This document shows, one piece after another, positions 35,801-64,000 of a DNA stretch of 64,000 bases. The notes under the pieces were generated by a model. It searched no databases. It had not been told where the DNA came from and was given only the letters and a program-made list of their open reading frames with translations. Position numbers and translations under genes: made by a program. Numbering within the stretch: the stretch's first letter is position 1; every line of letters starts with the position of its first letter. This DNA is from Flectonema sp. DT1601 (taxonomy: Eukaryota). Where the stretch lies: positions 496,001-560,000 of the forward strand of contig OZ025781.1 of NCBI GenBank assembly GCA_964019425.1. The letters run 5' to 3'.

Positions 35801-36670
35801 AGGCCATCAAATTCTGATGGATAGATTAGGGGGGGGGGGTGTGTCCTGTCGGTTCCGTATGTGAAATCTATTACAATTAATGAAGACTTGGTTGTGGATT
35901 TAATTATTAATTTATTAGAGGATTCAGACATTCTAGTTTTTAGAGAAGAGCAAGACGGGTCATGTTATTTTATAGGAAATTACAACTACAGAATATGTTG
36001 CACTATTCAGGAATCGAAGCTGCTTTTTCAGTTTTTCCTTATTACTTTACGATTGTTGCCGTCGTTTTGGAACGCTTCATCAATATTAATAAACCTTTTC
36101 GTCTTTCAGTAGATTCCAAAAAAAAAGGAAACAAATAAAAACAACAACAGCAATGCAAGTTTTTGTGACGTGTCCGGATTTGGGATTCCCTGCGGTGTCA
36201 GTCACGGTTGGTGCTGATTCTGTTGTGAGCGACGTGTTGATGGAAGCGGCTGGCGAGTGGGATGTCGATGCGGAGGAAGTTGAACTGTTGTTCGCTGGTG
36301 ATGTCCTTTGTGAAAGTGAGCGGCTGGCAGATCATGGAGTGGGTGGAGACAGCGAGTTGGAAATGCGGAAGAAGCTGATTCGGATCTTCGGTAAAAACTG
36401 GTTTGTTGATGATAGAAAAAGGGAGATGCTGCTTCTTTGGATTAGAGACCACAATACGGAGGATTTATATCTGGACACTCCCACATTCTTGGAGGATGGT
36501 TGCCTCACTGTTGACAAAAGATTGCTTCCTTCAGATGCCAAACGGATTTCCTTCCGCCATTCAAACTCCAACAGCACGGTCATCTCACAAGTTACTTCTA
36601 TTGGAGATGACTTTTTATATGATTGTTCAGAAATCACTTCTCTTGATCTTTCAAGTATTAGTAGTGTCAC
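32841..36670. repeat. Segmental duplication, copy 1 (pairs with 55560-59389, offset 22719)
   Basis: ORF-track entries are identical at offset 22719. Only two amino-acid differences are visible in the Ubl part (M/T, E/V). Confidence 0.95.
33346..34362 (+). CDS. Papain-family (C1A) cysteine protease, cathepsin L/F-like preproenzyme, copy 1
   Basis: Signal peptide, I29 prodomain (GITKFSDMTPEEF), QGQCGSCWSF, LDHAVLIVGFG and YWKIKNSW. Confidence 0.95.
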   Translation: MKLSLALLSLPCLAAGLTASAEDVAHLAFDSFKSQYNKKYVSEVEEAKRYEAFKASLDRVAASGNPTHGITKFSDMTPEEFKATYLSARPLQKSSPPVAEWDGECTACKRFPELSNLKNATSFDWTTKGAVTKVKNQGQCGSCWSFGTTGDIEGTWFLAGNDLTSLSEQELVSCDKTDDGCGGGLQETAFAWVIKQGGLTTEANYPYNSGGGRVDACEEAKKKPIAASIKTWYQVSKNAGGESKIESQLPHVGPITIGINATPMQDYKGGVDNPRLCSGLQLDHAVLIVGFGTDNGVDYWKIKNSWAADWGEEGYYRIVRGHNKCGLANDAVHSVAGK

Positions 36671-40834: not shown

Positions 40835-43830
40835 ATGTAAAGTGTTGAATTGATTATTGGTTGTCATGTATTTTATATTTTTAATGTTTTGTTGTCAATA
40901 AAACGTGGTATCAACTTTTACCAAGTGACGAGACCTCGGAATCTATGATTCTCCTCGCGTCTCATCACTTCTCTTCCGATGATATTATTCTGCCAAGTTA
41001 TCTTTTTTTCCCTGAGCGTTTAGTATTACTGTTTGCGATTATACAAAAATCTACGTCTGTTTTCTGAGTAATCTTTTTTTTTGTTCCGACGAAGTCAGAG
41101 AAGAAACTATTCAGATTGAAAGTCGATATTTCTTATGGTCATGATTAATTTTCACCATGCGACAGGATTTTATCTGTGTTCAACGAAATATAAGGCTGAT
41201 CTGAATGGTTTTTTTGTTCTTATTTTGTGTCAAACCCCCGTCCTTGGATCTGACAGGTATTTTTCAGTTGAGTACTTTGATATTAATTTAATTTCAATAT
41301 CAAAATTCCATTTTTGGTAACGTGCCGCTAACAATGAATGAAGAGGGAGAAAAGCTTCTGTTTGGTTGGGTCAACCAACTGAACGTTTCTCCGCCGATAT
41401 CGGGACGGAAATTATTTACAAGATATTCGTAAAATGTATCAAGCGAAAGTTATTTTGTAGTGTTCATTCTTTTATCAGACTTTCAAGCCTTTCCCCGTTT
41501 TCAATAATAAATCTTAATCCCACCCGCCATTCCTCGTAGTGCCGATCCTCCCCAAGAGAAGATCGGCACATTAATGTTCATGAAGCAGATACTCTAAGGC
41601 AGACGTCTACTCGTCGTCAAGGGTAGACCGCCAAGTTGACGACCCTATATGTATATGATTACCGAGTGAATTGTTTTCTATCCTTCATCATCATCTTTCT
41701 TTCATCAGGTGCAAAAAGAATGCAATAGTTGATTACCGAGTACAACAAAGTTTTTATATTTATCACTCTAATTTACTAACTCAGTAGATGTAAATTCATG
41801 TAGCGTTGGTGCATCAAAGTAGTTGAGAATTTGAATCGAAACTGCCTCGAAGATTCTGTTTTTAAGTTGTCAAAGTTTCACCCCAACCTTCGGATTTAAT
41901 AAAAGAGCTGTTTTATTATTTTTAATATAAGCTAACTCATTTGTTTGAAAAAAATGATTTCCAATTAATGTCTTTGCTGAAAAAACCCGTCGATGCCACC
42001 ACCCCGACATTATTTGTTAGGATTATACAGAGCCCCCTCATGTTTTCTAACTGAATTCTGGATAACACTACCATAATTTATGTAAAGTGAGTACTCCGCT
42101 ATTAGTGTTGCTACGAACTAACAATATGGGTAGGCCATCAAATTCTGATGGATAGTTTAGGGGGGGGAGTAGGGGGGGGGTACAAGCATCGAATTTACGG
42201 AGATTTTGGGCACTTTCGGTTTTTTTCCGGAGAACAAGTTTTTTGGGCACCCAAACTATGAAAACTGCAACATATACCCCAAAAATGGGGATTGCGATCC
42301 AAAGAAACAGTTCTTCGGCACTTTAGAGCAAGTCTTTGAAAAATCTCAAAAAGTGTGGACCGTGTGGGTACCTGAGGGGGGTGAAAACAAGGGGTGTGTT
42401 AGGAGGGCTCACAAAAATTACAAGTAATTCCGTGCATTGAGCAATCCATAACCAGGGTTTCCCTCTGAGTTGAGTGGGGAATGAAATGGGAACCCAAGTT
42501 TTATTTTTATCGACCTGATTTGAACCTTAATAATATGCTCCACCAGACCGGGCTTGTTAATTCCCCCATGTCCGATGTTTAGGCTACTGGCCTTCTCTTG
42601 AGCATCCCATGTGCTCAGCTTTTGAAATTCGGCTCGAAGCTGTGCTTCTTTCTGTACAAGATAGACAGAGGACCAATCCTTGGATACAGATGGCAGATTA
42701 GTATTAGACCTTGCTGTCTAGAGGTCTTCCCTGTGAGGACGGGGTGGTACGTTCAGCCCCTGTAGCGCCTCCTGTTGTGCTTGTTCTTGCCAATTTGAAG
42801 AGGGTCGGTGGTCCTGCGTTGATGTGGTAGCCTTTGGAAGTCCGTGTACCTCTGGAATATGTTGTACGTTATCAGTAGAGTAGCATTCACGCCACTGGTT
42901 CCATCAGTTGACCAAGAACTATCAACAACACTGAATAACCTCCCCATCCCTTGAGGGGTGCAGGATGACAACGAACGCCACGGTTGTTAGCTTCATCCCA
43001 CGAACACGACGGTACCAGAGGAAGTATCATGCTGCAGCAATTTGACGGAGGGTGAGGAGGAAGCTGCTGCTTCAAGAAGTCAGGTCACCGACAGATCACC
43101 TGTGAATCCATCAAGTCGGACTGTCCTTCGAGATACAGTTGGTGACTTCGACCCGCTTCTCTTCTGTCTGCGCACCTGCGACAGCTTCAACTATGTCACT
43201 CACTCAGGACTTAGTTAGATCTCTCTGCGCCGATCCCTTCTTGCCGCAATATCTGCAGTGTAGTTACGACTCCAAGACTCTAGGAGTATGTCCCCCTCGT
43301 TTGGGTACAGTTGCAAGCGGATGTGTCTTCCGTACTTCTTCGTATGCCGCATGTACTGAAGTGTCTTGTATGCCCTGCTGGTGAGTATGGTTGGGTCTTG
43401 AGTGATGCCTTGAACGGCTTTTTGGACGGGGCATGTTGCCCTATGTCGCTGTTGCTATCTATGGCACTGCTATTTGATGCACTACCACTACAGCTGTCTT
43501 CAGGCTTATCCCTGTTTGGGGTACAGACGTGGCGCTTTGTCTATTCTGTGAGCCTTCTGTGATCACGATTCAGATACTGGACGTTTTTGGACCCCTTTCT
43601 CACGCGTATCTTGCTTCTGACTGTCCAAGTGCTGTTGAGTGACTTCAGGGATGCCTCGGGAGGTGTTTTCATGCACTCCGGGATCAATGCTCTCTTCCGC
43701 AGAATGACTTTGTGAGCTGCCCTGCAGAACGTCGTTTTCCGCTGCGTTATCCTGCCTCTTGACCTTTCAGGTCTTAGTAGTGTCACAAGTATTGGAAATC
43801 ATTTTTTTGTCTGAGTGTTCAGAAATCACT

Positions 43831-46767
43831 TGGGATCACGACACCTGCCTCCTCGCGGCGGTCCCGGACGACTTCGATAGGGGTCGACAAGACGGTGTCA
43901 AACGCAAGGGATGCGAACAACATCAACACCAACCACCACATCAAGAGCATCCGAACACTGGATGTTTCTTATCCAACAAAGAAAGAAACAGGCTGGCCCA
44001 TGCCTTGAATGGCAATGGTGGAACAAGGAAGGACAGCAGAGACCGACGCCCGCGGGACGACACTCGCGACAGGGACGAGGACCGCACGGACAAGGAAGAA
44101 CGCCGGCTGGCGAAACTCGAGAAGGAAAAACTCGAGTCGCTAGACGAAATCGAGGAAGAGAAGCAGCGGCTGGGGCAACAGAGAATGGCCATGGAGCAGC
44201 ACCACCACCAGAAGGAAACCAACCTTCAAGGACAAGAAAAACAGTTGGAACAGCAACGCCAACACCAACAACAAGAACTGCAAAGTCAGTACCACCAACA
44301 ACAGCAGCAACTGCAAAGCCACCATCAGCTGAAGGAAACGGAAAGTCTCCAGAAGGAGCAAAACCTACAGGCTCAACTCAAAGAGCAACATCAGCACCAA
44401 CAGAAGGAATTGGAGAAGCAATACCGCCAACGACAACAGCAACTGGAAAGCCAGCAGCAGAAGAAGGACGCCGAGTCTGAACAGCAAACGCATCTGACTC
44501 GGTCACAACTACAGAAGGAAAAGGAATCCTTCCAGACGGAGAAGGAACGGCTCCACCTCCAGCTGGATCAGCAGCTAAAGAACGAGAAGGAGCACCTCCA
44601 CCGAAAGCTCAAGGAGCAGATTGGACAAGAAAAAGTCCAACAACAACAAAAGCTCCAACAGAAGGAAGACGAGATCCAACGGCGTGAGGAAGAGGTGAAC
44701 CGAGGACAGCAGCAACTACACCAACAGCAGCAACAACTAGAGCAACAGCAACAGCAATCGCAACATCAGCAACTGGAACTACAACAACAACGGCAACAAC
44801 AACAACAACAGCATCAACAACTGGAACTGGAACAACAACAACTACAACAGCAACTGCAACTGCAACAACATCGACAACCGCAACAACAACCGCAACAGCA
44901 ACCCGTACACTACATGCAACATCAACCGTATGCAACGTACGACACCTACGCCCAGCAGCAGCAGCAGTCTTCCCACTACGAAGGACTACAACAGGAACTG
45001 AAGCGCGAGAGAGAGGAGAAAAGCGAACTACGCGAGATGCTCCGAACTCTCCAACAACAACTGGACGGATTGAGAGAAGAACTCAAGGCCCAACATGCTG
45101 AGGCGAAGAGGCAGCAGGAAACGGCGGGACGGGAAGCGAGAGAGATGCAAGAACGTTTCTTGCTAGAACTCGAAGCGGAACGGGTCCAGATCAGAGGACT
45201 CAACTCGCTGAGAGAAGAGGAAGAGGAACATCAGATGGACACCACCCCTGATCAGGAAGCAAACACGGAAGTGAAGCAAACGCCACCGGTGAAGCTGCCC
45301 CAAGACGGTATGAGGGAGCTGGACGCCTCACGCAAGAAGCTGATGAAAGAAATCAATGAAGGGCAGGTAGCCGGACGATCGGCCATCCAAGAGCAGATGG
45401 TCCGAGAGGCCGGGAGACTGGCGCAGACTCAGAAGAGCTGGGAGAACGCAGCACGCAAGGAGCGATCCAGGGTGGATAACCTCTCGCTGGCACCGGAGTA
45501 TTGGCCAGAGGGAATGGCAATTACGAAGGAGCAGTACGACGCCGGTACAAAGGGAGTACACCTCACCACCAGAGAGGAGGCAAGGAAGAGGATGTCGGGA
45601 ACACCTCCGGGAGCCTGGGAAACGTTATCCCTAGTAACCCTGGAACCACCATCAGACACGGCGCAGAAAGTACAGGTAGTACTTAAGGAGACGACGAGCG
45701 ACGGCGAGAAGAGAATTCTCAAGCAGCTCTGGATGACAACACTGGGAAGAGTGGTTGTACCATCCGGAACAGACGTCGTGCGGACGGAAAGCACGAGGGA
45801 GATGGTTGTCCGAGTGGACAAAAAATGGTCCGGAGAGAAGAGATGGTCGGAAGTGAAGCGCTCCCCGATCAGGGCAACGGAAGAGTTGAGGAAGATGCAG
45901 GGGTATGTCGATACGTACAACCCGCGGATCGGAGACCAGAGCGTCACGGTGATGCTCAGGGTGAAGGTAGCCGAAGTGAAGAACTTCCTCCGAGAATCGG
46001 GGAAGGACGGCGTCTTCACCAAGGAAAAGGATCCGAGAGAAGAACGAGCAGTGAAGGCGGCGGTCATTTGGCTACCGAAGGACGAGACACTCGGAATCGC
46101 TCGGGACAAGGCTGTAGAAGTCGATGGAGGGCTGGGACTTGTGGTAAACGAACACGGACTCGGGCTTCGAGTGACCAGCTGGCAGGAAACGGCGGCGAGG
46201 GAGAAACTGCACCTGCCGGCTAAGCTACCGGAAACAAAGATCACGGGTATCCCGATCGGCACAACCACCGACGAAGCGATCAAGTGGCTGATCACGAAGG
46301 AAGGCTGGGAAGTGAGGAAGACGAAGGAAGGCGTACGGAACGGCATGCGATGGATGGTCGTCCGCGGTCCGGTGAGAACGCAGGAAACCATCACGGTGGA
46401 TGGCGTCCTGTGCATGGTGGAGGCTGGGAAACAGAAGGTGGAAGTCGACCCGAAACGGAAGGAGACCAAACGCCCGAATGCGACACCGACAAAACCGGAG
46501 AAAAGGCGTGACCCGACGGAGGGAACGGGAGGAAAGTGGTACACTCGATTGGAGTTCATCGAGTTTCATGGGAAGAAGAAGGGACAACGCCTATGGTTAG
46601 AAGCCAGCAACCCAACACCAACTACGACGGCACCTACGAAGGCAGCGACCGCAACGACAACAGCGAAAAAGGAGCCCAAGTCGACAAAAAAGAAGGAGAA
46701 CAGCTCAGTGGACGAGAGATTGGACCGACTGGAACGTCTACTGATGGCGTTCATGGAACGGAATTGA
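43831..46767 (+). CDS. Retrotransposon ORF1 (Gln-rich coiled coil, RRM-like C-terminal region); true start unclear
   Basis: Frame is open from the insertion junction to TGA at 46765-46767. First in-frame ATG is at 44185. The frame is preserved across indels in copy C. Confidence 0.85.
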   Translation, partial: WDHDTCLLAAVPDDFDRGRQDGVKRKGCEQHQHQPPHQEHPNTGCFLSNKERNRLAHALNGNGGTRKDSRDRRPRDDTRDRDEDRTDKEERRLAKLEKEKLESLDEIEEEKQRLGQQRMAMEQHHHQKETNLQGQEKQLEQQRQHQQQELQSQYHQQQQQLQSHHQLKETESLQKEQNLQAQLKEQHQHQQKELEKQYRQRQQQLESQQQKKDAESEQQTHLTRSQLQKEKESFQTEKERLHLQLDQQLKNEKEHLHRKLKEQIGQEKVQQQQKLQQKEDEIQRREEEVNRGQQQLHQQQQQLEQQQQQSQHQQLELQQQRQQQQQQHQQLELEQQQLQQQLQLQQHRQPQQQPQQQPVHYMQHQPYATYDTYAQQQQQSSHYEGLQQELKREREEKSELREMLRTLQQQLDGLREELKAQHAEAKRQQETAGREAREMQERFLLELEAERVQIRGLNSLREEEEEHQMDTTPDQEANTEVKQTPPVKLPQDGMRELDASRKKLMKEINEGQVAGRSAIQEQMVREAGRLAQTQKSWENAARKERSRVDNLSLAPEYWPEGMAITKEQYDAGTKGVHLTTREEARKRMSGTPPGAWETLSLVTLEPPSDTAQKVQVVLKETTSDGEKRILKQLWMTTLGRVVVPSGTDVVRTESTREMVVRVDKKWSGEKRWSEVKRSPIRATEELRKMQGYVDTYNPRIGDQSVTVMLRVKVAEVKNFLRESGKDGVFTKEKDPREERAVKAAVIWLPKDETLGIARDKAVEVDGGLGLVVNEHGLGLRVTSWQETAAREKLHLPAKLPETKITGIPIGTTTDEAIKWLITKEGWEVRKTKEGVRNGMRWMVVRGPVRTQETITVDGVLCMVEAGKQKVEVDPKRKETKRPNATPTKPEKRRDPTEGTGGKWYTRLEFIEFHGKKKGQRLWLEASNPTPTTTAPTKAATATTTAKKEPKSTKKKENSSVDERLDRLERLLMAFMERN
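43832..43899 (+). ncRNA. Predicted HDV-like self-cleaving ribozyme at the element 5' end (copy B)
   Basis: P1 GGGAUC/GGUCCC; P2 GACACC/GGUGUC; P3-L3 GCC-UCCUCGC-GGC; P1.1 GG; P4 CGACUUC-GAUA-GGGGUCG; J4/2 ACAA with candidate catalytic C43888. Folded by eye. Confidence 0.88.
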
Positions 46768-49700
46768 CCGGCGGAGGACGGAAGGAACTGGGCGGAGACA
46801 CGGAGACGTCTCCTGCTACAAGCTGGCGACGTTGAGAGGAACCCCGGACCGAGACCACGAATCGATGGGCTCACCGTGGGAACAATCAATGTCACCACAC
46901 TAGAAGGAAAAATAGATGCCATCACAGATCTGAACCTAGATCTGATAGCTCTACAGGAAACTTCTCTGACGGGCCCACAGCAACGCCAGATGAAAAAACA
47001 GCTCGGTGAGAGAGGATGGGAAGCGACGTTCGGGTTAGAGTGCAAATTACTAACCGATGGGCAAAAGACGTGGACGGCGGCGGGAGGCGTGGCCATCTTG
47101 ACGCGCACTGGTACACCGGTGAGAAGGATAAAACACGATCGGCTCGACAACACAGGACGATTCGTACACGCGGGAGTGTCGTACGGAAATGGCAAGGTAC
47201 TGCACGTATTCTCGTTCTACGGAGACGTACGTTCGGCGGTCTACACGGAAGAGTTGATTGCGGAGATGCTCGTGGAAGCAGCAGCTCTGGGTGATGTTCC
47301 CGTATTTATAGCGGGGGACTTCAACGTCGAAACAACGGAATCGCCGGCGCTTCTGTCGGCTTTCGCACACGGACTCTGGATAGATGCCGCCGTCTCGATG
47401 GGAAACATGACACCGACAAGCGAAGCGGGAAAAGGACTTCGTAGAATCGATGCTATTCTGATGAACCGCGGGGCGGCGACAGCAATCTCGAATGACACAA
47501 CGATTCATGTGCATAAGAGTGAGCTGATCCCGACACACAAGCCGGTCATCATTAGAAAGCTCAGCATCTCACGCTACAACGAGAAGGCTCCTAGGCTGAT
47601 AGTACCGAAACAGTTGGATACCTCCGAGACAACGGACCCGAGTGAGGGGAAGGCCGAAAGGCAACTCCACTGGACGCGAGCTGTAGCGACGGAAGATCCT
47701 GACAAGATGCTGGAGGCGCTTGGAGAGATCATCGAAAGATACCTTCTGACGGGAAAGCTGGAGATAAGTAACCCAGCCAAGTACAAGGGACGCGGGAAGA
47801 AGCGTGAGCCTGTGATGTGGACGAACGCGGCGAAACAAGACGGGAGAGGAGCGACGTGCAGGGAAACGCGGAGAAGACTGCAGAAGATACGTGTTCTGGA
47901 GGAAGTGATGAAAATCACAAAGCAACGCGATGGTCCGACGGTGCCGTCCCACGAAGTAATGAAACTCTGGAAAAAATTACGAAAACTCGATCCGACGACG
48001 GGATCCGAAATACCACAGACGGAGGAGCTTCGGATACTACTACAACAAGCGAGACAGGAGCAAGCGATAGAAAGCAAGAAGCTCCGAACTGAACGCATCC
48101 GCATGTGGAAACGGAATGTTGTCGACAATTGGAATGACGACCGCACGAAGGTTTTCCAGTGGATCAGGAACGTCGAGCAATCGAAGACTGTTCTGATGGA
48201 AAAGGCAGATGGAAGCTGGACGGCCAACTGCTCCGAGATGGATGAGGCCATGCACGCGGCATGGGACCCCATACTCAAAAAGTACTTATCAGACCCGGAA
48301 CCAGACTGGATGAAGTTCGAAGAACGGTACAGCAACTACATCGAGGAACACCCGATGCGATGCGAAGATATCACCGGGGAGGACGTTGCAAAAGCCCTCA
48401 GAAGGACTAGCTCGCGCAAAGCAGCTGGGGTAGACGGCTTCAGGATATCGGAGCTCAAGTCGCTACCGGAGGACATGATTCAGATGATAGCGGAATTCTA
48501 CAACATAGTGGAGAGAACACACTGGCCGGAAGCACTTCTCACGGCACTGGTGTCGGCCATACCCAAAGGGGCAGGGACGAAACCACTGGAGCAGAGACCC
48601 ATTACGGTGACATCCGCACTTTACAGGCTATGGGGCTGTATACGTATGGAAAAGGATGTAATGGAGTGGCAAGAGAAGTGGGCTCACGACGGGCAGTACG
48701 GCTACCGGAAGGGGAGATCTACGCTCGACCTCAGCTGGAAGATAGCACTAGACGTGGAACACGCAACTCTCTACGGAGAAGAGATTGCAGGAGTGACCAC
48801 GGACTTCAGGAAGTGTTTCGACCTGATCCCGCACGACATCCTCCTGAAATTGGTGAAGGAATTGGGCCTCGGTGATAAGATCCTGAGAACTGTGACGGAT
48901 GTCTACCGGCGACTCAGAAGGAGATTCAAGTTCCCGAGCGGCGTCGGAGAAGAATTTGCCACCACCAACGGAATACTGCAAGGATGCCCGCTCAGCGTGG
49001 TGCTCTTCAATGCGCTGAGCTCGATACTCAGCAAAGCAATCGAGAGGGAAGCCGATGTGACGCCCGGATCGTATGCGGACGACCTGACATTGTTTGGATC
49101 ACGAACGAAGCTACAAGAAGGCGTAGAAGTCGTTGCGGAGTTCTGCACCCTGACCGGACAAGAACTCGCGCCTCAGAAATGCAAGTGGTTCTCGAACAGA
49201 GACCAGGGCCAGACCAACATCACAATGGGGGACACAACACTGGACTTCGATGACAGTGTCGATATCGTGGGATGCCACCTCAGTATGAAAGGAACCACCA
49301 AGCAGATGGGGAGGATCACGGAAGAAGTGCTCGATAGAGCGAGGCGAATCCGGTTACTTCCGCTCAGATATCAAGCGAAGGAACAGATAGCTGCAGCTAG
49401 TGTCATGCCCAAGGCGCTCTTCGGAACGGCACTGTACGATCCCGATGCGACGCGACTCGGACTGCTGAGAAGAGCAATGGCAACGGGGATTTTCCGCAAA
49501 CTTGGAGGGAAAAGAACTAAGATGTCGCACACCATGGGCCTAACGCTACTCTGCAAGGGACATTGTGTGGATCCCGCGACGTACATTAGGTACAACAGAC
49601 TCCTTGCACTCACCAGAATGCTACCGAAGCTAACTGAGAGGATACGCAGGGTATGGGAACACCTGCAGGAGCACACTGAAGCGACGAGAGGACCAGTCGG

Positions 49701-51504
49701 CCTCGCCCTGAGTACTCTGAAGGAACTTGGATGGGAATGGTCAACTTTCTCGGTCTTCGAAGGTCCGGGAGGGATGACCGAACACGGAAGGCTGGATGCG
49801 GGGCGCTGGCGGCACGATGTCAGAGAGGCGTGCAGGCGTTTCACCTGGAACAAAACAATTGCGGAAACGAGACGGGTAAACCTGAGAGGTATTGAAGCGG
49901 GCATCGACCGGAAAGAGACCCTGAAGGTCCTGAAGGAAGGAAAGGGCGACCCCTACCTGCGCGGAGTAGTGAAGCACTGCCTCCTGGACAACGTGTACAC
50001 TGGCTCGATGAAGGCGGGAAACAAGAACTGCGCGCACTGCGAGGAGGTTGACGACGTAGAGAGGACGGAGACCCTCGAGCACGTGAACTGGGATTGCAGA
50101 GCTTATGACACAATACGACAGGAATATCCGCAAGTGATGCTACAAGTTCGATGCGATTGGCCCAATTGCCTGAGGCTACTCGGCATCAAGCCCGACAATG
50201 TGGAACTGCCGGCGGGGCTCACCGGAGACCTACAACGAATGTTCGCACGGATCAGGCTCCGCAGGGACGACTACCAACAACTGGAGGAGAGACGGCTGAC
50301 GGTTGTGGAATACGCTGGGAACAAGGAACCGGAAGTAGTTATGCGATACAACAACAAACTGGAAAAGTACATGCCAGTATACACCCAATGGCCCGAAGCC
50401 CTTGGATTGACCTTGTACTTAGCGCTTGCGAGCTACCTGAGGGAACTGAAGTGGCCTCGACAGCCAGACGGGGTCGGAGTCACCTTCCTGGAATTAGCGA
50501 TCGACTTCGAAGCGTATGCGGGGGTTGACATACCGACCACAGTCCACGAAGGCCACGTAGCGAAGTGCACCAAAGACAGAGCCGCCGGGAAGAAAGCTGA
50601 CGTCATGTGTGGACTGATGCTAAGATTGAACTTGGTTCACAAGCATTTAGAAGGCGAGGAACAAAGAACCTTTCCCGACTACTGCGTAGGAAGCAACAAA
50701 GCCTTACGTCCACTAGGAGCCCCGGTACTGAAAGGTTTGAAGAAACGACCAGCTTTTCTGATGGGAGACGAAACAGTAGACACAATTCGGAGGACGGTCC
50801 AGGAGGCGAACGACGGAAAAGCTGACAAAATCAGATTCGGCTTCGAGACTGAGTGCAGGCACTCGAGCGAGAGGGAAGGGAGAGCGGAGAAATGGATAAC
50901 CGCGGCACGACTTTTCCCATCAAAGGAAAAAGACGTACAGCTGAGGAGGGAGCTCTGCGAGCGAGGACCGACACGCCCGCCACCCGAGGTCGTCAAGAGA
51001 CCGGGCATCGCGGAGGGACAAGGAACGATGAACTCGACGTGCTACGGGCACTTCAAGAAGAAATGCAATAGTTGTCGACGGGCCGGAAACACCATCTACC
51101 AGTGCTGCCACAACCATCACACTCTGGGGGATGAAGATGGACAAATACCGATATGGGACTTTTGCAGCAAGCACAAGCTTACTCCATGTGCAGTCTGCAT
51201 AGTGATCGGCAGAGGATCTGAGCAATGTTGCAGAAACAGCCACCACCGATGCCGTCACCACGAGATGGCTCCCTGCAACGACTGCAAGCGGAATCCGGAT
51301 CCGGAACAACGGACTGCCACGAAATGCTGCAACAAAAAGCATCACGGGCCAATTATAAGGACGTTGACGAGGAGGGCGAAGCAGCCGACGAAGCATGATA
51401 CGCAAACCAGCACATCGCTTCTAAAATTAGGTTTCACCAAACAAATGAAACCGAAAGCAGAGGAAACCCCGGAAAGGGAACCACAGGACAAGGGGTTAAC
51501 TTAG
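46768..51504 (+). CDS. Retrotransposon ORF2: 2A peptide + APE endonuclease + reverse transcriptase + CCHC knuckle + triple Cys/His repeat
   Basis: APE motifs GTINV, IALQET, GGVAIL, GDFNV and RIDAIL; RT motifs RPITV, DFRKCFD, GILQGCPLS and YADD; C-x2-C...H-x4-C. Same frame as ORF1, no ATG before the APE domain, no RNase H recognised. Confidence 0.93.
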   Translation, partial: PAEDGRNWAETRRRLLLQAGDVERNPGPRPRIDGLTVGTINVTTLEGKIDAITDLNLDLIALQETSLTGPQQRQMKKQLGERGWEATFGLECKLLTDGQKTWTAAGGVAILTRTGTPVRRIKHDRLDNTGRFVHAGVSYGNGKVLHVFSFYGDVRSAVYTEELIAEMLVEAAALGDVPVFIAGDFNVETTESPALLSAFAHGLWIDAAVSMGNMTPTSEAGKGLRRIDAILMNRGAATAISNDTTIHVHKSELIPTHKPVIIRKLSISRYNEKAPRLIVPKQLDTSETTDPSEGKAERQLHWTRAVATEDPDKMLEALGEIIERYLLTGKLEISNPAKYKGRGKKREPVMWTNAAKQDGRGATCRETRRRLQKIRVLEEVMKITKQRDGPTVPSHEVMKLWKKLRKLDPTTGSEIPQTEELRILLQQARQEQAIESKKLRTERIRMWKRNVVDNWNDDRTKVFQWIRNVEQSKTVLMEKADGSWTANCSEMDEAMHAAWDPILKKYLSDPEPDWMKFEERYSNYIEEHPMRCEDITGEDVAKALRRTSSRKAAGVDGFRISELKSLPEDMIQMIAEFYNIVERTHWPEALLTALVSAIPKGAGTKPLEQRPITVTSALYRLWGCIRMEKDVMEWQEKWAHDGQYGYRKGRSTLDLSWKIALDVEHATLYGEEIAGVTTDFRKCFDLIPHDILLKLVKELGLGDKILRTVTDVYRRLRRRFKFPSGVGEEFATTNGILQGCPLSVVLFNALSSILSKAIEREADVTPGSYADDLTLFGSRTKLQEGVEVVAEFCTLTGQELAPQKCKWFSNRDQGQTNITMGDTTLDFDDSVDIVGCHLSMKGTTKQMGRITEEVLDRARRIRLLPLRYQAKEQIAAASVMPKALFGTALYDPDATRLGLLRRAMATGIFRKLGGKRTKMSHTMGLTLLCKGHCVDPATYIRYNRLLALTRMLPKLTERIRRVWEHLQEHTEATRGPVGLALSTLKELGWEWSTFSVFEGPGGMTEHGRLDAGRWRHDVREACRRFTWNKTIAETRRVNLRGIEAGIDRKETLKVLKEGKGDPYLRGVVKHCLLDNVYTGSMKAGNKNCAHCEEVDDVERTETLEHVNWDCRAYDTIRQEYPQVMLQVRCDWPNCLRLLGIKPDNVELPAGLTGDLQRMFARIRLRRDDYQQLEERRLTVVEYAGNKEPEVVMRYNNKLEKYMPVYTQWPEALGLTLYLALASYLRELKWPRQPDGVGVTFLELAIDFEAYAGVDIPTTVHEGHVAKCTKDRAAGKKADVMCGLMLRLNLVHKHLEGEEQRTFPDYCVGSNKALRPLGAPVLKGLKKRPAFLMGDETVDTIRRTVQEANDGKADKIRFGFETECRHSSEREGRAEKWITAARLFPSKEKDVQLRRELCERGPTRPPPEVVKRPGIAEGQGTMNSTCYGHFKKKCNSCRRAGNTIYQCCHNHHTLGDEDGQIPIWDFCSKHKLTPCAVCIVIGRGSEQCCRNSHHRCRHHEMAPCNDCKRNPDPEQRTATKCCNKKHHGPIIRTLTRRAKQPTKHDTQTSTSLLKLGFTKQMKPKAEETPEREPQDKGLT
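46789..46851 (+). other. 2A (StopGo) ribosome-skipping peptide WAETRRRLLLQAGDVERNPG|P (copy B)
   Basis: Exact D[VI]ExNPGP consensus at 46828-46851, preceded by LLxQAG, immediately before APE motif I. Confidence 0.92.
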
Positions 51505-54500
51505 GTTGGCCGAACCAGTGCCTCGTCATCTCACCGTGCTAGCAAGCCTGAATGACAGCACTCAAAATGGTACATATAATTGTTCACAAATCACTTCTCT
51601 TGACCTTTCAGGTCTTAGTAGTGTCACCAGTATTGAAAGTTTTTTTTTGTCTAATTGTTCACAAATCACTTCTCTTGACCTTTCAGGTATTAGTAGTGTC
51701 ACCAGTATTGGAGTTTGTTTTTTGTCTAAGTGTTCAGAAATCACTTCTCTTGACCTTTCAGGTCTTAGTAGTGTCACCATTATTGAAAGTTCTTTTTTGT
51801 CTTATTGTTCTGAAATCACTTCTCTTGACCTTTCAGGTCTTAGTAGTGTCACTAGTATTGGAAATCATTTTTTATTTCGTTTTTCAGAAATCACTTCTCT
51901 TGACCTTTCAGGTCTTTGTGGTGTCACCAGTATTGGAAGTTCTTTTTTGTCTAATTGTTCACAAATCACTTCTCTTGACCTTTCAGGTCTTAGTAGTGTC
52001 ACCAGTATTGAAAGTTTTTTTTTGTCTAAGTGTTCACAAATCACTTCTCTTGACCTTTCAGGTCTTAGTAGTGTCACCAGTATTGAAAGTTTTTTTTTGT
52101 CTAAGTGTTCACAAATCACTTCTCTTGACCTTTCAGGTCTTAGTAGTGTCACCAGTATTGAAAGTTTTTTTTTGTCTAAGTGTTCACAAATCACTTCTCT
52201 TGACCTTTCAGGTCTTAGTAGTGTCACCAGTATTGGAGATTGTTTTTTGTCTGAGTGTTCAGAAATCACTTCTCTTGACCTTAGTAGTGTCAACTCTTGG
52301 TCTTAGTAGTGTCACCAGTATTGAAAGTTCTTTTTTGTCTAATTGTTCAAAAATCACTTCTGTTGACCTTTCAGGTCTTAGTGATGTTAAAGAAATTGGT
52401 GATGCCTTCTTCGATAATTGCAGTGCCCTGGAATCTGTTCAGCTGCCTGAAAATAATGGCGCTCTCTTTGAACCGTCTGTGAAAGCTGCGATTAATCATT
52501 AAATGTAAAGTGTTGAATTGATTATTGGTTGTCATGTATTTTATATTTTTAATGTTTTGTTGTCAATAAAACGTGGTATCAACTTTTACCAAGTGACGAG
52601 ACCTCGGAATCTATGATTCTCCTCGCGTCTCATCACTTCTCTTCCGATGATATTATTCTGCCAAGTTATCTTTTTTTCCCTGAGCGTTTAGTATTACTGT
52701 TTGCGATTATACAAAAATCTACGTCTGTTTTCTGAGTAATCTTTTTTTTTGTTCCGACGAAGTCAGAGAAGAAACTATTCAGATTGAAAGTCGATATTTC
52801 TTATGGTCATGATTAATTTTCACCATGCGACAGGATTTTATCTGTGTTCAACGAAATATAAGGCTGATCTGAATGGTTTTTTTGTTCTTATTTTGTGTCA
52901 AACCCCCGTCCTTGGATCTGACAGGTATTTTTCAGTTGAGTACTTTGATATTAATTTAATTTCAATATCAAAATTCCATTTTTGGTAACGTGCCGCTAAC
53001 AATGAATGAAGAGGGAGAAAAGCTTCTGTTTGGTTGGGTCAACCAACTGAACGTTTCTCCGCCGATATCGGGACGGAAATTATTTACAAGATATTCGTAA
53101 AATGTATCAAGCGAAAGTTATTTTGTAGTGTTCATTCTTTTATCAGACTTTCAAGCCTTTCCCCGTTTTCAATAATAAATCTTAATCCCACCCGCCATTC
53201 CTCGTAGTGCCGATCCTCCCCAAGAGAAGATCGGCACATTAATGTTCATGAAGCAGATACTCTAAGGCAGACGTCTACTCGTCGTCAAGGGTAGACCGCC
53301 AAGTTGACGACCCTATATGTATATGATTACCGAGTGAATTGTTTTCTATCCTTCATCATCATCTTTCTTTCATCAGGTGCAAAAAGAATGCAATAGTTGA
53401 TTACCGAGTACAACAAAGTTTTTATATTTATCACTCTAATTTACTAACTCAGTAGATGTAAATTCATGTAGCGTTGGTGCATCAAAGTAGTTGAGAATTT
53501 GAATCGAAACTGCCTCGAAGATTCTGTTTTTAAGTTGTCAAAGTTTCACCCCAACCTTCGGATTTAATAAAAGAGCTGTTTTATTATTTTTAATATAAGC
53601 TAACTCATTTGTTTGAAAAAAATGATTTCCAATTAATGTCTTTGCTGAAAAAACCCGTCGATGCCACCACCCCGACATTATTTGTTAGGATTATACAGAG
53701 CCCCCTCATGTTTTCTAACTGAATTCTGGATAACACTACCATAATTTATGTAAAGTGAGTACTCCGCTATTAGTGTTGCTACGAACTAACAATATGGGTA
53801 GGCCATCAAATTCTGATGGATAGTTTAGGGGGGGGAGTAGGGGGGGGGTACAAGCATCGAATTTACGGAGATTTTGGGCACTTTCGGTTTTTTTCCGGAG
53901 AACAAGTTTTTTGGGCACCCAAACTATGAAAACTGCAACATATACCCCAAAAATGGGGATTGCGATCCAAAGAAACAGTTCTTCGGCACTTTAGAGCAAG
54001 TCTTTGAAAAATCTCAAAAAGTGTGGACCGTGTGGGTACCTGAGGGGGGTGAAAACAAGGGGTGTGTTAGGAGGGCTCACAAAAATTACAAGTAATTCCG
54101 TGCATTGAGCAATCCATAACCAGGGTTTCCCTCTGAGTTGAGTGGGGAATGAAATGGGAACCCAAGTTTTATTTTTATCGACCTGATTTGAACCTTAATA
54201 ATATGCTCCACCAGACCGGGCTTGTTAATTCCCCCATGTCCGATGTTTAGGCTACTGGCCTTCTCTTGAGCATCCCATGTGCTCAGCTTTTGAAATTCGG
54301 CTCGAAGCTGTGCTTCTTTCTGTACAAGATAGACAGAGGACCAATCCTTGGATACAGATGGCAGATTAGTATTAGACCTTGCTGTCTAGAGGTCTTCCCT
54401 GTGAGGACGGGGTGGTACGTTCAGCCCCTGTAGCGCCTCCTGTTGTGCTTGTTCTTGCCAATTTGAAGAGGGTCGGTGGTCCTGCGTTGATGTGGTAGCC

Positions 54501-55424: not shown

Positions 55425-55559
55425 CGTGAGCCTCGTGGCATGGCCGAGCGAGAGCGCTGCTCTTTTTCGTGGCGTGTTCTTGAAGCGGAAACTGATACGG
55501 AAATGGTATATTAGCACACTGCGTGCACAGGGACACACTAAGGTCACCTCTTCTCATTG

Positions 55560-58500: not shown

Positions 58501-59389
58501 ACGAACTAGCAATATGGGTAGGCCATCAAATTCTGATGGATAGATTAGGGGGGGGGGGTGTGTCCTGTCGGTTCCGTATGTGAAATCTATTACAATTAAT
58601 GAAGACTTGGTTGTGGATTTAATTATTAATTTATTAGAGGATTCAGACATTCTAGTTTTTAGAGAAGAGCAAGACGGGTCATGTTATTTTATAGGAAATT
58701 ACAACTACAGAATATGTTGCACTATTCAGGAATCGAAGCTGCTTTTTCAGTTTTTCCTTATTACTTTACGATTGTTGCCGTCGTTTTGGAACGCTTCATC
58801 AATATTAATAAACCTTTTCGTCTTTCAGTAGATTCCAAAAAAAAAGGAAACAAATAAAAACAACAACAGCAATGCAAGTTTTTGTGACGTGTCCGGATTT
58901 GGGATTCCCTGCGGTGTCAGTCACGGTTGGTGCTGATTCTGTTGTGAGCGACGTGTTGACGGAAGCGGCTGGCGAGTGGGATGTCGATGCGGAGGAAGTT
59001 GTACTGTTGTTCGCTGGTGATGTCCTTTGTGAAAGTGAGCGGCTGGCAGATCATGGAGTGGGTGGAGACAGCGAGTTGGAAATGCGGAAGAAGCTGATTC
59101 GGATCTTCGGTAAAAACTGGTTTGTTGATGATAGAAAAAGGGAGATGCTGCTTCTTTGGATTAGAGACCACAATACGGAGGATTTATATCTGGACACTCC
59201 CACATTCTTGGAGGATGGTTGCCTCACTGTTGACAAAAGATTGCTTCCTTCAGATGCCAAACGGATTTCCTTCCGCCATTCAAACTCCAACAGCACGGTC
59301 ATCTCACAAGTTACTTCTATTGGAGATGACTTTTTATATGATTGTTCAGAAATCACTTCTCTTGATCTTTCAAGTATTAGTAGTGTCAC
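55560..59389. repeat. Segmental duplication, copy 2 (pairs with 32841-36670)
   Basis: Offset 22719, near-complete identity. Confidence 0.95.
56065..57081 (+). CDS. Papain-family (C1A) cysteine protease, copy 2
   Basis: Protein identical to 33346-34362. Confidence 0.95.
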   Translation: MKLSLALLSLPCLAAGLTASAEDVAHLAFDSFKSQYNKKYVSEVEEAKRYEAFKASLDRVAASGNPTHGITKFSDMTPEEFKATYLSARPLQKSSPPVAEWDGECTACKRFPELSNLKNATSFDWTTKGAVTKVKNQGQCGSCWSFGTTGDIEGTWFLAGNDLTSLSEQELVSCDKTDDGCGGGLQETAFAWVIKQGGLTTEANYPYNSGGGRVDACEEAKKKPIAASIKTWYQVSKNAGGESKIESQLPHVGPITIGINATPMQDYKGGVDNPRLCSGLQLDHAVLIVGFGTDNGVDYWKIKNSWAADWGEEGYYRIVRGHNKCGLANDAVHSVAGK

Positions 59390-62300
59390 CAGTATTGGAG
59401 TTTGTTTTTTGTCTGAGTGTTCAGAAATCACTTCTCTTGACCTTTCAGGTCTTAGTAGTGTCACTAGTATTGGAAATCATTTTTTATTTCGTTGTTCAGA
59501 AATCACTTCTCTTGACCTTTCAGGTCTTAGTAGTGTCACCAGTATTAAAAGTTCTTTTTTGTCTTATTGTTCAGAAATCACTTCTCTTGACCTTTCAGGT
59601 CTTAGTAGTGTCACCAGTATTGGATATCAATTTTTGTCTAATTGTTCAGAAATCACTTCTGTTGACCTTTCAGGTCTTAGTAGTGTCACTAGTATTGGAA
59701 ATGATTTTTTATTTCGTTGTTCAGAAATCACTTCTCTTGACCTTTCAGGTCTTAGTAGTGTCACCAGTATTAAAAGTTCTTTTTTGTCTTATTGTTCAGA
59801 AATCACTTCTCTTGACCTTTCAGGTCTTAGTAGTGTCACCAGTATTGGATATCAATTTTTGTCTAATTGTTCAGAAATCACTTCTGTTGACCTTTCAGGT
59901 CTTAGTAGTGTCACCAGTATTGGAGATTGTTTTTTGTCTTATTGTTCAGAAATCACTTGGGATCACGACACCTGCCTCCTCGCGGCGGTCCCGGACGACT
60001 TCGATAGGGGTCGACAAAACAGTGTCAAACACAAGAGATGCCAACAACATCAAAACCATCAAAACCAGCTACAACATCCAGAGCATACAAACCCTGGCTT
60101 GTCAAATAAAGAACGGAATAAACTAGCCCATGCCTTGAATGGCAATGGTGGACCAGGAAAGGACAGCAGAGACCGACGCCCGCGAGACGATACTCGCGAC
60201 AGGGACGAAAACCGTCCAAACAAGGAGGAACGTCGCATAGCGAAGCTCGAGAAAGAGAAACTCGACTCGCTAGACGAGATAGAGGAAGAGAAGCAACGAC
60301 TGGGGCAGCAGAGAATGGCCATGGAACAGCACCACCACCAGAAGGAAACCAACCTTCAAGGACAAGAAAAACAGTTGGAACAGCAACGCCAACACCAACA
60401 ACAAGAACTGCAAAGTCAGTACCACCAACAACAGCAGCAACTGCAAAGCCATCATCAGCTGAAGGAAACGGAAAGTTTCCAGAAGGAGCAAAACCTACAG
60501 GCTCAACTCAAGGAGCGACACCAGCACCAACAGAAGGAATTGGAGAAGCAATACCGCCAACAACAACAGCAACTGGAAAGCCAACAGCAGAAGAAGGACG
60601 CCGAGTCTGAACAGCAAACACATCTGACTCGGTTACAACTACAGAAGGAAAAGGAATCCTTCCAGACAGAGAAGGAACGGCTCCACCTCCAGCTGGATCA
60701 GCAGTTGAAGAACGAGAAGGAGCACCTCCACCAACAACTCCAACAGAAGGAAGACGAGGTTCGTAAAGAAAAGTTAGCAGAGAGAATAGAACTCCAACAA
60801 CTACGAGATGAACTAACTCAACAAGAACAGAACATCCAACGACGTGAGGAAGAGGTGAACCGAGGACAGCACCAACTACACCAACAACAACAACAACTAG
60901 AGCAGCAGCAACAGCAATCGCAACATCAGCAACTGGAACTACAACAACAACGGCAACAACAGCAACAGCAACAACAGCATCAACAACTGGAACTACAACA
61001 ACAACAACAACAACAGCACCAACAACAGCATCAACAACTGGAACTGGAACAACAACAACTACAACAGCAACAGCAACTGCAACAACATCGACAACCGCAA
61101 CAACAACCGCAACAGCAACCCGTACACTACATGCAACATCAACCGTATGCAACGTACGACACCTACGCCCAGCAGCAGCAGTCTTCCCACTACGAAGGGC
61201 TACAACAGGAACTGAAGCGCGAAAGAGAGGAGAAGAGCGAACTACGCGAGATGCTCCGAACTCTCCAACAACAACTGGACGGATTGAGAGAAGAACTCAA
61301 GGCCCAACATGCTGAGGCGAAGAGGCAGCAGGAAACGGCGGGACGAGAAGCGAGAGAGATGCAAGAACGTTTCTTGCTAGAACTCGAAGCGGAACGGGTC
61401 CAGATCAGAGGGCTCAACTCGCTGAGAGAAGAGGAAGAGGAACTTCAGATGGACACCACCCCTGATCAGGAAGCAAACACGGAAGTGAAGCAAACGCCAC
61501 CGGTGAAGCTGCCCCAAGACGGTATGAGGGAGCTGGACGCCTCACGCAAGAAGCTGATGAAAGAAATCAATGAAGGGCAGGTAGCCGGACGATCGGCCAT
61601 CCAAGAGCAGATGGTCCGAGAGGCCGGGAGACTGGCGCAGACTCAGAAGAGCTGGGAGAACGCAGCACGCAAGGAGCGATCCAGGGTGGATAACCTCTCG
61701 CTGGCACCGGAATACTGGCCAGAGGGAATGGCGATCACGAAGGAGCAGTACGACGCCGGTGCAAAGGGAGTACACCTCACCACCAGAGAGGAGGCAAGGA
61801 AGAGGATGTCGGGAACACCTCCGGGAGCCTGGGAAACGTTATCCCTGGTAACCCTGGAACCACCATCAAGCACGGCCCAAAAAGTACAAGTGGTACTGAA
61901 GGAGACGACGAGCGACGGCGAGAAGAGAATTCTCAAGCAGCTCTGGATGACAACACTGGGAAGAGTGGTTGTACCATCCGGAACAGACGTCGTGCGGACG
62001 GAAAGCACGAGGGAGATGGTTGTCCGAGTGGACAAAAAATGGTCCGGAGAGAAGAGATGGTCGGAAGTGAAGCGCTCCCCGTTCAGAGCAACGGAGGAAT
62101 TGAAGAAGATGCCGGGGTACGTCGATACGTACAACCCGCGGATCGGAGACCAGAGCGTGACCGTGATGCTCAGGGTGAAGGTAGCCGAAGTGAAGAACTT
62201 CCTCCGAGAATCGGGGAAGGACGGCGTCTTCACCAAGGAAAAGGATCCGAGAGAGGAACGAGCAGTGAAGGCGGCGGTCATTTGGCTACCGAAGGACGAG

Positions 62301-62981
62301 ACGCTCGGAATCGCTCGGGACAAGGCTGTAGAAGTCGATGGAGGGCTGGGACTCGTGGTAAACGAACACGGACTCGGGCTTCGAGTGACCAGCTGGCAGG
62401 AAACGGCGGCGAGGGAGAAACTGCACCTGCCGGCTAAGCTACCGGAAACAAAGATCACGGGGATACCGATCGGCACAACCACCGACGAAGCGATCAAGTG
62501 GCTGATCACGAAGGAAGGCTGGGAAGTGAGGAAGACGAAGGAAGGCGTACGGAACGGCATGCGATGGATGGTCGTCCGCGGTCCGGTGAGAACGCAGGAA
62601 ACCATCACAGTGGATGGCGTCCTGTGCATGGTGGAGGCTGGGAAACAGAAGGAGGAAGTCGACCCGAAACGGAAGGAGACCAAACGCCCGAATGCGACAC
62701 CGACGAAACCAGAGAAAAGGCGTGACCCGACGGAGGGAACGGGAGGAAAGTGGTACACTCGATTGGAGTTCATCGAGTTTCATGGGAAGAAGAAGGGACA
62801 ACGCCTATGGTTAGAAGCCAGCAACCCAACACCAACTACGACGGCACCTACGAAGGCAGCGACCGCAACGACAACAGCGAAAAAGGAGCCCAAGTCGACA
62901 AAAAAGAAGGAGAACAGCTCAGTGGACGAGAGATTGGACCGACTGGAACGTCTACTGATGGCGTTCATGGAACGGAATTGA
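58872..62981 (+). CDS. Chimeric ORF: Ubl + 8 LRRs (58872-59958) fused in frame to retrotransposon ORF1 (59959-62981)
   Basis: Open 1369-codon frame with junction ...FLSYCSEIT|WDHDTCLL... Confidence 0.85.
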   Translation: MQVFVTCPDLGFPAVSVTVGADSVVSDVLTEAAGEWDVDAEEVVLLFAGDVLCESERLADHGVGGDSELEMRKKLIRIFGKNWFVDDRKREMLLLWIRDHNTEDLYLDTPTFLEDGCLTVDKRLLPSDAKRISFRHSNSNSTVISQVTSIGDDFLYDCSEITSLDLSSISSVTSIGVCFLSECSEITSLDLSGLSSVTSIGNHFLFRCSEITSLDLSGLSSVTSIKSSFLSYCSEITSLDLSGLSSVTSIGYQFLSNCSEITSVDLSGLSSVTSIGNDFLFRCSEITSLDLSGLSSVTSIKSSFLSYCSEITSLDLSGLSSVTSIGYQFLSNCSEITSVDLSGLSSVTSIGDCFLSYCSEITWDHDTCLLAAVPDDFDRGRQNSVKHKRCQQHQNHQNQLQHPEHTNPGLSNKERNKLAHALNGNGGPGKDSRDRRPRDDTRDRDENRPNKEERRIAKLEKEKLDSLDEIEEEKQRLGQQRMAMEQHHHQKETNLQGQEKQLEQQRQHQQQELQSQYHQQQQQLQSHHQLKETESFQKEQNLQAQLKERHQHQQKELEKQYRQQQQQLESQQQKKDAESEQQTHLTRLQLQKEKESFQTEKERLHLQLDQQLKNEKEHLHQQLQQKEDEVRKEKLAERIELQQLRDELTQQEQNIQRREEEVNRGQHQLHQQQQQLEQQQQQSQHQQLELQQQRQQQQQQQQHQQLELQQQQQQQHQQQHQQLELEQQQLQQQQQLQQHRQPQQQPQQQPVHYMQHQPYATYDTYAQQQQSSHYEGLQQELKREREEKSELREMLRTLQQQLDGLREELKAQHAEAKRQQETAGREAREMQERFLLELEAERVQIRGLNSLREEEEELQMDTTPDQEANTEVKQTPPVKLPQDGMRELDASRKKLMKEINEGQVAGRSAIQEQMVREAGRLAQTQKSWENAARKERSRVDNLSLAPEYWPEGMAITKEQYDAGAKGVHLTTREEARKRMSGTPPGAWETLSLVTLEPPSSTAQKVQVVLKETTSDGEKRILKQLWMTTLGRVVVPSGTDVVRTESTREMVVRVDKKWSGEKRWSEVKRSPFRATEELKKMPGYVDTYNPRIGDQSVTVMLRVKVAEVKNFLRESGKDGVFTKEKDPREERAVKAAVIWLPKDETLGIARDKAVEVDGGLGLVVNEHGLGLRVTSWQETAAREKLHLPAKLPETKITGIPIGTTTDEAIKWLITKEGWEVRKTKEGVRNGMRWMVVRGPVRTQETITVDGVLCMVEAGKQKEEVDPKRKETKRPNATPTKPEKRRDPTEGTGGKWYTRLEFIEFHGKKKGQRLWLEASNPTPTTTAPTKAATATTTAKKEPKSTKKKENSSVDERLDRLERLLMAFMERN
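59959..60026 (+). ncRNA. Predicted HDV-like ribozyme (copy C)
   Basis: Core identical to copy B. Two changes lie near the 3' strand of P2 (GACAC/GUGUC retained). Confidence 0.82.
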
Positions 62982-64000
62982 CCGGCGGAGGACGGAAGGA
63001 ACTGGGCGGAGACACGGAGACGTCTCCTGCTACAAGCTGGCGACGTTGAGAGGAACCCCGGACCGAGACCACGAATCGATGGGCTCACCGTGGGAACAAT
63101 CAATGTCACCACACTAGAAGGAAAAATAGATGCCATCACAGATCTGAACCTAGATCTGATAGCTCTACAGGAAACTTCTCTGACGGGCCCACAGCAACGC
63201 CAGATGAAAAAACAGCTCGGTGAGAGAGGATGGGAAGCGACGTTCGGGTTAGAGTGCAAATTACTAACCGATGGGCAAAAGACGTGGACGGCGGCGGGAG
63301 GCGTGGCCATCTTGACGCGCACTGGTACACCGGTGAGAAGGATAAAACACGATCGGCTCGACAACACGGGACGATTCGTACACGCGGGAGTGTCGTACGG
63401 AAATGGCAAGGTACTGCACGTTTTCTCGTTCTACGGAGACGTACGTTCGGCGGTCTACACGGAAGAGTTGATTGCGGAGATGCTCGTGGAAGCAGCAGCT
63501 CTGGGTGATGTTCCCGTATTTATAGCGGGGGACTTCAACGTCGAAACAACGGAATCGCCGGCGCTTCTGTCGGCTTTCGCACACGGACTCTGGATAGATG
63601 CCGCCGTCTCGATGGGAAACATGACACCGACAAGCGAAGCGGGAAAAGGACTTCGTAGAATCGATGCGATTCTGATGAACCGCGGGGCGGCGACAGCAAT
63701 CTCGAATGACACAACGATCCATGTGCATAAGAGTGAGCTGATCCCGACACACAAGCCGGTCATCATTAGAAAGCTCAACATCTCACGCTACAACGAGAAG
63801 GCTCCTAGGCTGATAGTACCGAAACAGTTGGATACCTCCGAGACAACGGACCCGAGTGAGGGGAAGGCCGAAAGGCAACTCCACTGGACGCGAGCTGTAG
63901 CGACGGAAGATCCTGACAAGATGCTGGAGGCGCTTGGAGAGATCATCGAAAGATACCTTCTGACGGGAAAGCTGGAGATAAGTAACCCAGCCAAGTACAA
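62982..64000 (+). CDS. Retrotransposon ORF2, 5' part (2A at 63042-63065 + APE endonuclease), truncated by the window
   Basis: Same TGA-2A-GTINV arrangement as copy B (offset 16214). Confidence 0.9.

Follow-up and report, generated by a model that had tools for sequence, protein, structure and literature searches.

The 64-kb window analyzed here (the whole 64,000-nucleotide stretch of contig OZ025781.1 from Flectonema sp. DT1601) contains three copies, denoted A, B and C, of one non-LTR retrotransposon, all located in genes that encode a ubiquitin-like (Ubl) domain followed by LRR units. The element is a real, target-specific retrotransposon with an unusual, conserved in-frame relation to its host genes. 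Considering the conservation of its ORF1 upstream of the first AUG of that frame, we lean toward the interpretation that the host AUG starts ORF1 as a fusion protein on uncleaved mRNA, with the cleaved RNA serving as the template.

The host genes in the window are all on one strand, and the coordinates given below refer to this forward (+) strand unless stated otherwise. Copy B (43832..51576) is a full-length element of 7.7 kb that consists of a ribozyme, an ORF1 frame extending to 46767, an ORF2 frame (46768-51504) with APE and RT domains and a Cys/His-rich tail, and a 3' UTR of about 70 nt without poly-A; a single 76-nt LRR unit (43756..43831) remains upstream of it. Copy C, which begins at 59959, is cut short by the end of the window. 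The segment 36952..43755 includes copy A, a 5'-truncated element, together with 3.85 kb of the flank downstream of copy B; it differs from 48620-55424 by 1 mismatch in 6805 nt and ends at the canonical target cut, one LRR unit upstream of copy B. Copy B is the likely source of copy A, and the segment is likely to be a 3' transduction that parted copy B from the host ATG at 36153, with DNA-level duplication or misassembly as explanations that may apply instead. The element was likely active recently. The second Ubl-LRR 5' part (36153..36951) shares its frame with the truncated copy A RT, yielding, via a short non-matching junction, a Ubl-LRR::RT ORF of 1227 aa (36153-39836), a single case with a 1-in-3 probability by chance. 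Among the other features of the window are a duplicated 4.1-kb block that encompasses a cathepsin gene and a Ubl-LRR 5' part (32838-36948 and 55557-59668, 99.4% identity), two GC-richer segments of the transduced flank with short open frames only (42400-43756 and 54070-55556), possibly a decayed minus-strand element, and an ORF of 1793 aa (6883-12264) whose product, with many Cys-rich repeats behind an N-terminal domain, is likely secreted or located at the surface.

By its domain organization, the element is an APE-type non-LTR retrotransposon: in ORF2 of copy B, the APE domain (PF03372) is N-terminal to the RT (PF00078), both above the cut-off, and comparison of copies A and B reveals 5' truncation with a shared 3' end. 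The best PDB match is the L1 ORF2p (E 5e-17), and a search for RNase H gave no match at E 0.01. The named relatives of ORF2 are nearly all proteins of Diplonema papillatum (33-46% identity), which, with the one-strand arrangement of the host genes, points to a likely diplonemid source. The part of the copy C ORF2 that lies in the window (63063..64000, with the APE domain) is 99.5% identical to copy B before it runs off the end. The 90% cluster of ORF2 has 22 members and, among the 15 members listed, one is identical to the ORF2 of copy B. Some related ORF2 proteins contain a deubiquitinase-like domain before APE, namely OTU (PF02338) in P0014, P0034 and P0141; P0002 belongs to this group as well, and the relative P0003 shows a weak Josephin match (E 0.012, below the cut-off). 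The 19 nt on each side of copy B are LRR-like and not identical to one another, and the repeats obscure any target-site duplication. The 3' ends of the element, which lack poly-A, carry about 19 nt of LRR-like sequence unlike the 5' flank (51577-51596 and 39909-39928), which is either a tail that mimics the target or a duplication that has changed.

The host gene of copy C begins with a start codon and a Ubl domain (58872..59096) that is recognized through weak single-domain matches (UBL4A, E 0.004; the summed matches to polyubiquitin chains are stronger); in the near-identical Ubl paralog at 36153, Rad60-SLD of Pfam is matched at E 0.0086, below the cut-off. A BspA-type LRR array follows (59301..59958; PF13306, E 4.8e-23), with 75-nt units spaced by 75 in 8 of 8 intervals and with 0, 0 and 32 stops in the three frames, so that frames 0 and +1 are both open. 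Upstream of the gene, a pyrimidine tract with AG at 58807..58831 is the candidate spliced-leader acceptor (its AGs, about 40 nt before the ATG, end at 58828 and 58831 and follow a stretch of 70% pyrimidines), and there is no ATG between 58780 and 58871.

As the original prediction stated, a stop-free frame of 1369 aa (58872-62981) runs from this host ATG through the Ubl domain, the LRR units and the ribozyme fold into ORF1. That misassembly created this frame, or that it is a dead chimera without a role, is very improbable. The window does include duplications that are nearly identical (99.985% over 6.8 kb), as can result from misassembly, but a depth-2 Logan contig from run X1 spans the copy C junction (59910-60330) with 0 differences, which largely refutes an artefact for the junction itself; X1 is possibly the source sample, and the match accordingly tests the assembly only. 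Moreover, the junction recurs on four other contigs, and the region ahead of the first AUG of ORF1 is under purifying selection (see below). At 80% identity over the junction, runs X1-X3 yielded no contigs from other copies or sister ribozymes; the element was not covered by X2 or X3, which carries no weight either way.

The junction falls after the first base of a codon, immediately downstream of the left half of the target site, ATCACTT (59952..59958), and copies B (43832) and C (59959) both open with the same G directly after this heptamer. The prediction that copy B shares the junction phase holds to this extent, but copy B is not an open fusion today because it has no host ATG, its one remaining LRR unit is one base longer than the usual 75, and a stop lies upstream in the ORF1 frame. 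Because the LRR unit is 75 nt, that is, 25 codons, every insertion at the fixed site takes one phase, so that the agreement of copy B is no independent evidence of selection and the argument that had been built on the shared phase loses its force; for the same reason, we rejected phase statistics within the family as a test of the host-start idea. The 3' UTR was also said to run stop-free into the downstream LRR frame. The frames from 39838 and 51506 are indeed open for 266 codons, up to the stops at 40636 and 52304, where the downstream LRR array has its single longer unit (88 nt), but they contain no Met, and a 69-nt 3' UTR is stop-free in 37% of shuffles; we therefore do not regard this frame as continuing the element functionally. 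Nor do we take the ORFs at 39884, 51552 and 59128 (316 and 332 aa) for genes, since the +1 frame of the LRR unit is open by coincidence.

Searching proteins in two length classes (752-2396 and 30-751) and the members of a cluster, we identified four more 5'-intact copies as predicted proteins, P0064, P0098, P0117 and P0118; the collection lacks ORF1 of copies B and C, and the count of copies outside the window is therefore partial. All 6 of the 5'-intact copies have LRR-derived flanks, with the exact register in five; these five (C, B, P0064, P0098 and P0117) are in phase. Three of the six (C, P0098 and P0117), each in a different paralog, are unbroken from a Ubl start: P0098 matches copy C in 117 of 140 residues, and both P0098 and P0117 continue into the same junction peptide. 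In P0064, 83 LRR residues precede the junction, and the out-of-phase P0118 joins the +1 LRR frame and itself breaks off after about 140 residues. Judging from these junctions, the element inserts at one fixed position of a multicopy LRR sequence.

A predicted HDV-like ribozyme, detected by a descriptor scan and a pairing table, occupies 59959..60026, starting from the first base of the element. It comprises P1 (6 bp), P2, P3, L3, GG for P1.1, P4 and J4/2 with its C, the parts being named after those of the HDV fold; by sequence, the nested double-pseudoknot elements are present, and in copy C there is one C-A mismatch in P2. On both strands of the window, a hand-written HDV descriptor matched only at 43832 and 59959, compared with 0.08 matches per shuffled window (60 shuffles). 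Rfam gave no match to the ribozyme, a pattern scan of metagenome contigs gave 0 matches, and single-strand folding of the region does not stand out (z -0.14 and -0.09), in keeping with a pseudoknot. Self-cleavage is predicted to occur 5' of G1. All 6 of the 5'-intact copies begin at the G1 position with paralog-specific flanks, and the residues next to the junction differ between copies right up to it, which indicates that the donor flank is not carried along, as would be expected if the RNA is cut at G1. In copy C, the fold is read through in the ORF1 frame; of its 3 frames, 2 are open, and 44% of shuffled versions likewise lack a stop.

The first in-frame AUG of ORF1 is located 356 nt after G1, and the 72 codons upstream of it (60099..60314) are, as their substitution pattern attests, under purifying selection. 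Between copies B and C, pN/pS over these codons is 0.09 in the ORF1 frame versus 1.55 and 9.94 in the others, with about 25 synonymous and 8 nonsynonymous differing sites, and relatives share a NKxAH.NGNG motif in this region. The B-C indels between the ribozyme and this region (9 and 6 nt) preserve the frame; for the 20 codons right after the ribozyme, constraint is not significant (0.67, p 0.38). The purifying selection and the in-frame indels imply that ribosomes enter upstream of 60099. The rest of ORF1 (60315..62981) encodes a Gln-rich coiled coil and a conserved C-terminal domain and ends with TGA; the C-terminal domain has no Pfam match, and a PDB profile search of ORF1 gave coiled-coil-type matches only. 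On the minus strand, ORFs of 376 and 176 aa (45429-46559 and 46566-47096 in B; 61643-62773 and 62780-63310 in C) cross the end of ORF1 and the 2A region in both copies, likely as a by-product of codon bias.

The main rival to a start at the host AUG, which we consider the less likely of the two, is that the RNA is cut by the ribozyme before translation and then, uncapped, is read from a non-AUG start near its 5' end under the lead of the ribozyme; agreement with the host frame would then be a frozen accident of one ancestral target, with the LRR arrays serving as a multicopy safe haven. Such initiation could draw on the IRES-like, cap-independent activity reported for the HDV-like ribozymes of R2 and L1Tc (PMC6765202) and on the translation of unspliced L1Tc transcripts described in T. 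cruzi (PMC4748587). It would account for the AUG-less front of ORF1, for the intact ORFs that copy B retains without a host start and for the signal-like leader of a distant relative, P0123, discussed below, and the phase would arise by chance in 1 case out of 3. The codons, however, offer little for such a start, as the sole in-frame near-cognate codon inside the fold is AGG. From the ribozyme to the conserved region, copies B and C have a single near-cognate start in common, an AAG at codon 26.

Two further routes into ORF1, taken together, are improbable. Initiation could occur at a CUG, located where sister families have their AUG, followed by a +1 shift: there is a CTG at 59972, and although its frame closes at the TAG at 60005-60007 (59972..60007), CTT CGA stands just ahead of this TAG. 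The combination of a weak start with a frameshift would, however, be a poor route to an abundant protein. Alternatively, a spliced leader could be added at the pyrimidine-AG 9 nt before the junction, followed by a non-AUG start. Every LRR unit has a T-rich tract and AG, and 80% pyrimidines are found at 59949, but the first AUG downstream of this site (60038) is out of frame. Within the first 356 nt of the element, none of the 33 AGs is preceded by more than 55% pyrimidines.

The distribution of starts among relatives is informative with respect to these possibilities. Three sister families, with 61-64% identity in the ORF1 domain, begin with a peptide encoded by the same ribozyme fold but in a different frame; it opens with a Met that corresponds to CTG in the family of A, B and C, in which this frame ends at the TAG 11 codons on. 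In the sister P0106, this Met is seen internally, so the start is an ATG at least there; the same protein contains a tandem partial duplication of the 5' part of the ribozyme, read as a repeated peptide. In one sister family, three truncated copies have Lys runs (A tracts) ahead of them and none has LRR there; these flanks pertain to 1 of the 3 sister families, the other two showing no flank. For P0066, P0067 and P0103, no sister-level ORF2 stood out, and the own-AUG sisters may be ORF1-only and non-autonomous.

A search of 1.84 billion protein representatives produced 47 matches, including P0120 (41%) and P0123 (43%). P0120, with about 40% ORF1 identity, joins LRR in frame at the same register as the A/B/C family, reads the ribozyme fold in the frame of that family and has no Met until 289 residues past the junction. 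Its peptide forces 10 base changes in the 69 nt of the fold in this frame versus 43 and 35 in the other frames and points to a compensatory change in one P2 pair; the target residues have diverged (SEIT in the A/B/C family versus TSLV). P0123, another AUG-less relative, is in frame with a cathepsin that is 45% identical to the one encoded in the window; its first Met comes after 101 residues, and the cathepsin part opens with an apparent signal peptide, as judged by eye. Cluster representatives are likely to be biased toward the longest, in-frame member, and P0120 and P0123 each come from a single representative.

We built a tree of 19 ORF1 domains and rooted it at its midpoint with 10 distant rows. 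The families with their own AUG group together in it (97/97) as the sister clade of the A/B/C family (96/98), and P0120 and P0123 fall outside both. Given that the own-AUG clade is nested inside, lack of an AUG together with an in-frame host is likely the ancestral condition, from which an internal AUG likely arose once. This comparison provides a single contrast rather than many. The tree also bears on the alternatives. It makes the sisters' frame derived rather than ancestral, which argues against the CUG start with a frameshift; ribozyme-led initiation, for its part, predicts neither the gain of an AUG with a change of frame in a clade with non-LRR flanks nor the retention of frame and register in P0120 despite the divergence of the target residues.

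The UGA that ends ORF1 (at 62979) is in frame with ORF2. It is the single in-frame stop ahead of a linker (62982..63065) with a 2A-like peptide that ends in NPG/P and has a homologous 2A in P0003. The 2A-like peptide lies within 28 codons of the UGA, there is no Met for 74 codons, and this arrangement is identical in B and C, both of which contain the motif DxExNPG/P described previously (PMC3894237). The intact 2A after the stop suggests that ribosomes cross it or restart right at it. Folding downstream of the UGA (z 0.67 for 102 nt and -2.07 for 142 nt) gave no clear readthrough structure.

Combining these observations, we propose a tentative scheme for the expression of the element from the host AUG. 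The host transcription unit would be capped by spliced-leader trans-splicing at the host acceptor; a spliced leader is reported on nearly all D. papillatum mRNAs (PMC10161547). RNA that has not yet cleaved itself would be translated from the host AUG to give Ubl-LRR-ORF1, some ribosomes would pass the UGA by readthrough or AUG-independent reinitiation, and 2A StopGo would then free APE-RT from the variable host leader. Cleavage at the first G of the ribozyme would strip the host part and set the exact 5' end of the template, which would be copied into another LRR unit at the corresponding site, in frame once more. Within the element, this reading is supported by the selected codons before the first AUG, the lack of a shared near-cognate start other than the AAG and the lack of a pyrimidine-rich acceptor. 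Across copies, support comes from the phase of five of the six, three of them read from the Ubl start of different paralogs. Among relatives, P0120 keeps the register and the fold frame with no Met for 289 residues, the sisters have an AUG in another frame and, in the truncated copies with visible flanks, A tracts in place of LRR, and P0123 is AUG-less and in frame with a cathepsin. Organellar intron ORFs fused to upstream exons, as described in PMC8393795, are a precedent.

Several points weigh on the other side. One ancestral target could have been in frame by a 1-in-3 chance, with a fold that is often stop-free; the full host frame is present in 3 of the 6 copies, and the last LRR unit of copy B has an extra base; the apparent signal peptide of P0123 would misroute ORF1p; P0120 and P0123 are possibly biased representatives, and the host start of P0120 is putative; and the A-tract flanks come from 1 of 3 sister families only. 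If cleavage were near 100%, hardly any mRNA would stay uncleaved. In vitro, trypanosomatid ribozymes are reported to cleave co-transcriptionally to an extent of 0.2% to 94% among the rows listed, with some at about 100% (PMC4035085); by analogy, a sizeable pool of uncleaved RNA is possible. On balance, we favor the mechanism of the original prediction, translation from the host start with cleavage as the toggle, on grounds that differ from those first offered: the phase and 3' UTR arguments proved weaker, and the idea gains comparative support from the conserved ORF1 front upstream of the first AUG, from the in-frame LRR junction in other paralogs and in a distant family, and from the A-tract flanks of the own-AUG clade where flanks are seen.

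If correct, this mechanism would provide a reason for the targeting of protein-coding repeats. The usual answer to the question of how uncapped, ribozyme-cut retrotransposon RNA is translated is an IRES-like role of the ribozyme; use of the host AUG would be another, namely, translate first, cut later. The sisters with their own AUG, apparently in the same assembly, constitute a natural control. Extending the argument, we entertain, with rather less confidence, a broader evolutionary scenario in which an old diplonemid lineage without its own start depends on in-frame insertion into coding multigene families (LRR and perhaps cathepsins). The ribozyme would be read as protein, the timing of cleavage would switch the RNA from message to template, UGA readthrough and 2A would free the RT, and descendants would have left coding targets only via an AUG inside the ribozyme. 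Among the titles and opening lines of abstracts that our literature searches covered, none describes the A/B/C family or a non-LTR element that uses a host AUG, although Repbase or the supplements of the D. papillatum genome paper may contain such a description.

Among the closest parallels are the L1Tc/ingi elements of trypanosomatids. Like the A/B/C element, they are euglenozoan, combine APE with RT, begin at base 1 with an HDV-like ribozyme and carry a 2A ahead of APE; their ribozyme releases the RNA from polycistronic transcripts (PMC4035085, PMC4748587, PMC3894237). However, the ingi clade is reported to lack ORF1 and to have RNase H and poly-A, whereas the element described here has an ORF1 of about 980 codons, no RNase H match and no A tail at the 3' junction; unlike L1Tc/ingi, it also has a fixed protein-coding target. 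A fixed site in a multicopy host sequence and co-transcription with the target are shared with R2, R1, Tx1, CRE/SLACS, NeSL and Utopia, and the release of element RNA by a ribozyme, predicted in the present case, is shared with R2. In contrast to R2 and the other target-specific elements, the target here is a coding repeat with which ORF1 is in frame; protein-coding repeats are not among the targets of sequence-specific elements given in the pertinent part of PMC4640811. 2A is reported usually to accompany the absence of ORF1, and a few elements are named that have both (PMC3894237). One of these is CR1-26_BF, which, like the present element, combines ORF1 with a 2A at the start of ORF2. In the present element, both ORFs lie in the same frame, parted by one UGA, and no Met precedes the 2A; the named elements may or may not share this arrangement. 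Finally, organellar group I and II introns, in the process termed 'core creep', similarly carry an ORF that extends through their own ribozyme and borrows host translation signals, and RNA catalysis parts the message from the mobile RNA (PMC8393795), as predicted here. These introns, however, splice out and restore the gene, whereas the ribozyme of the present element would only cut, and the host gene stays disrupted.
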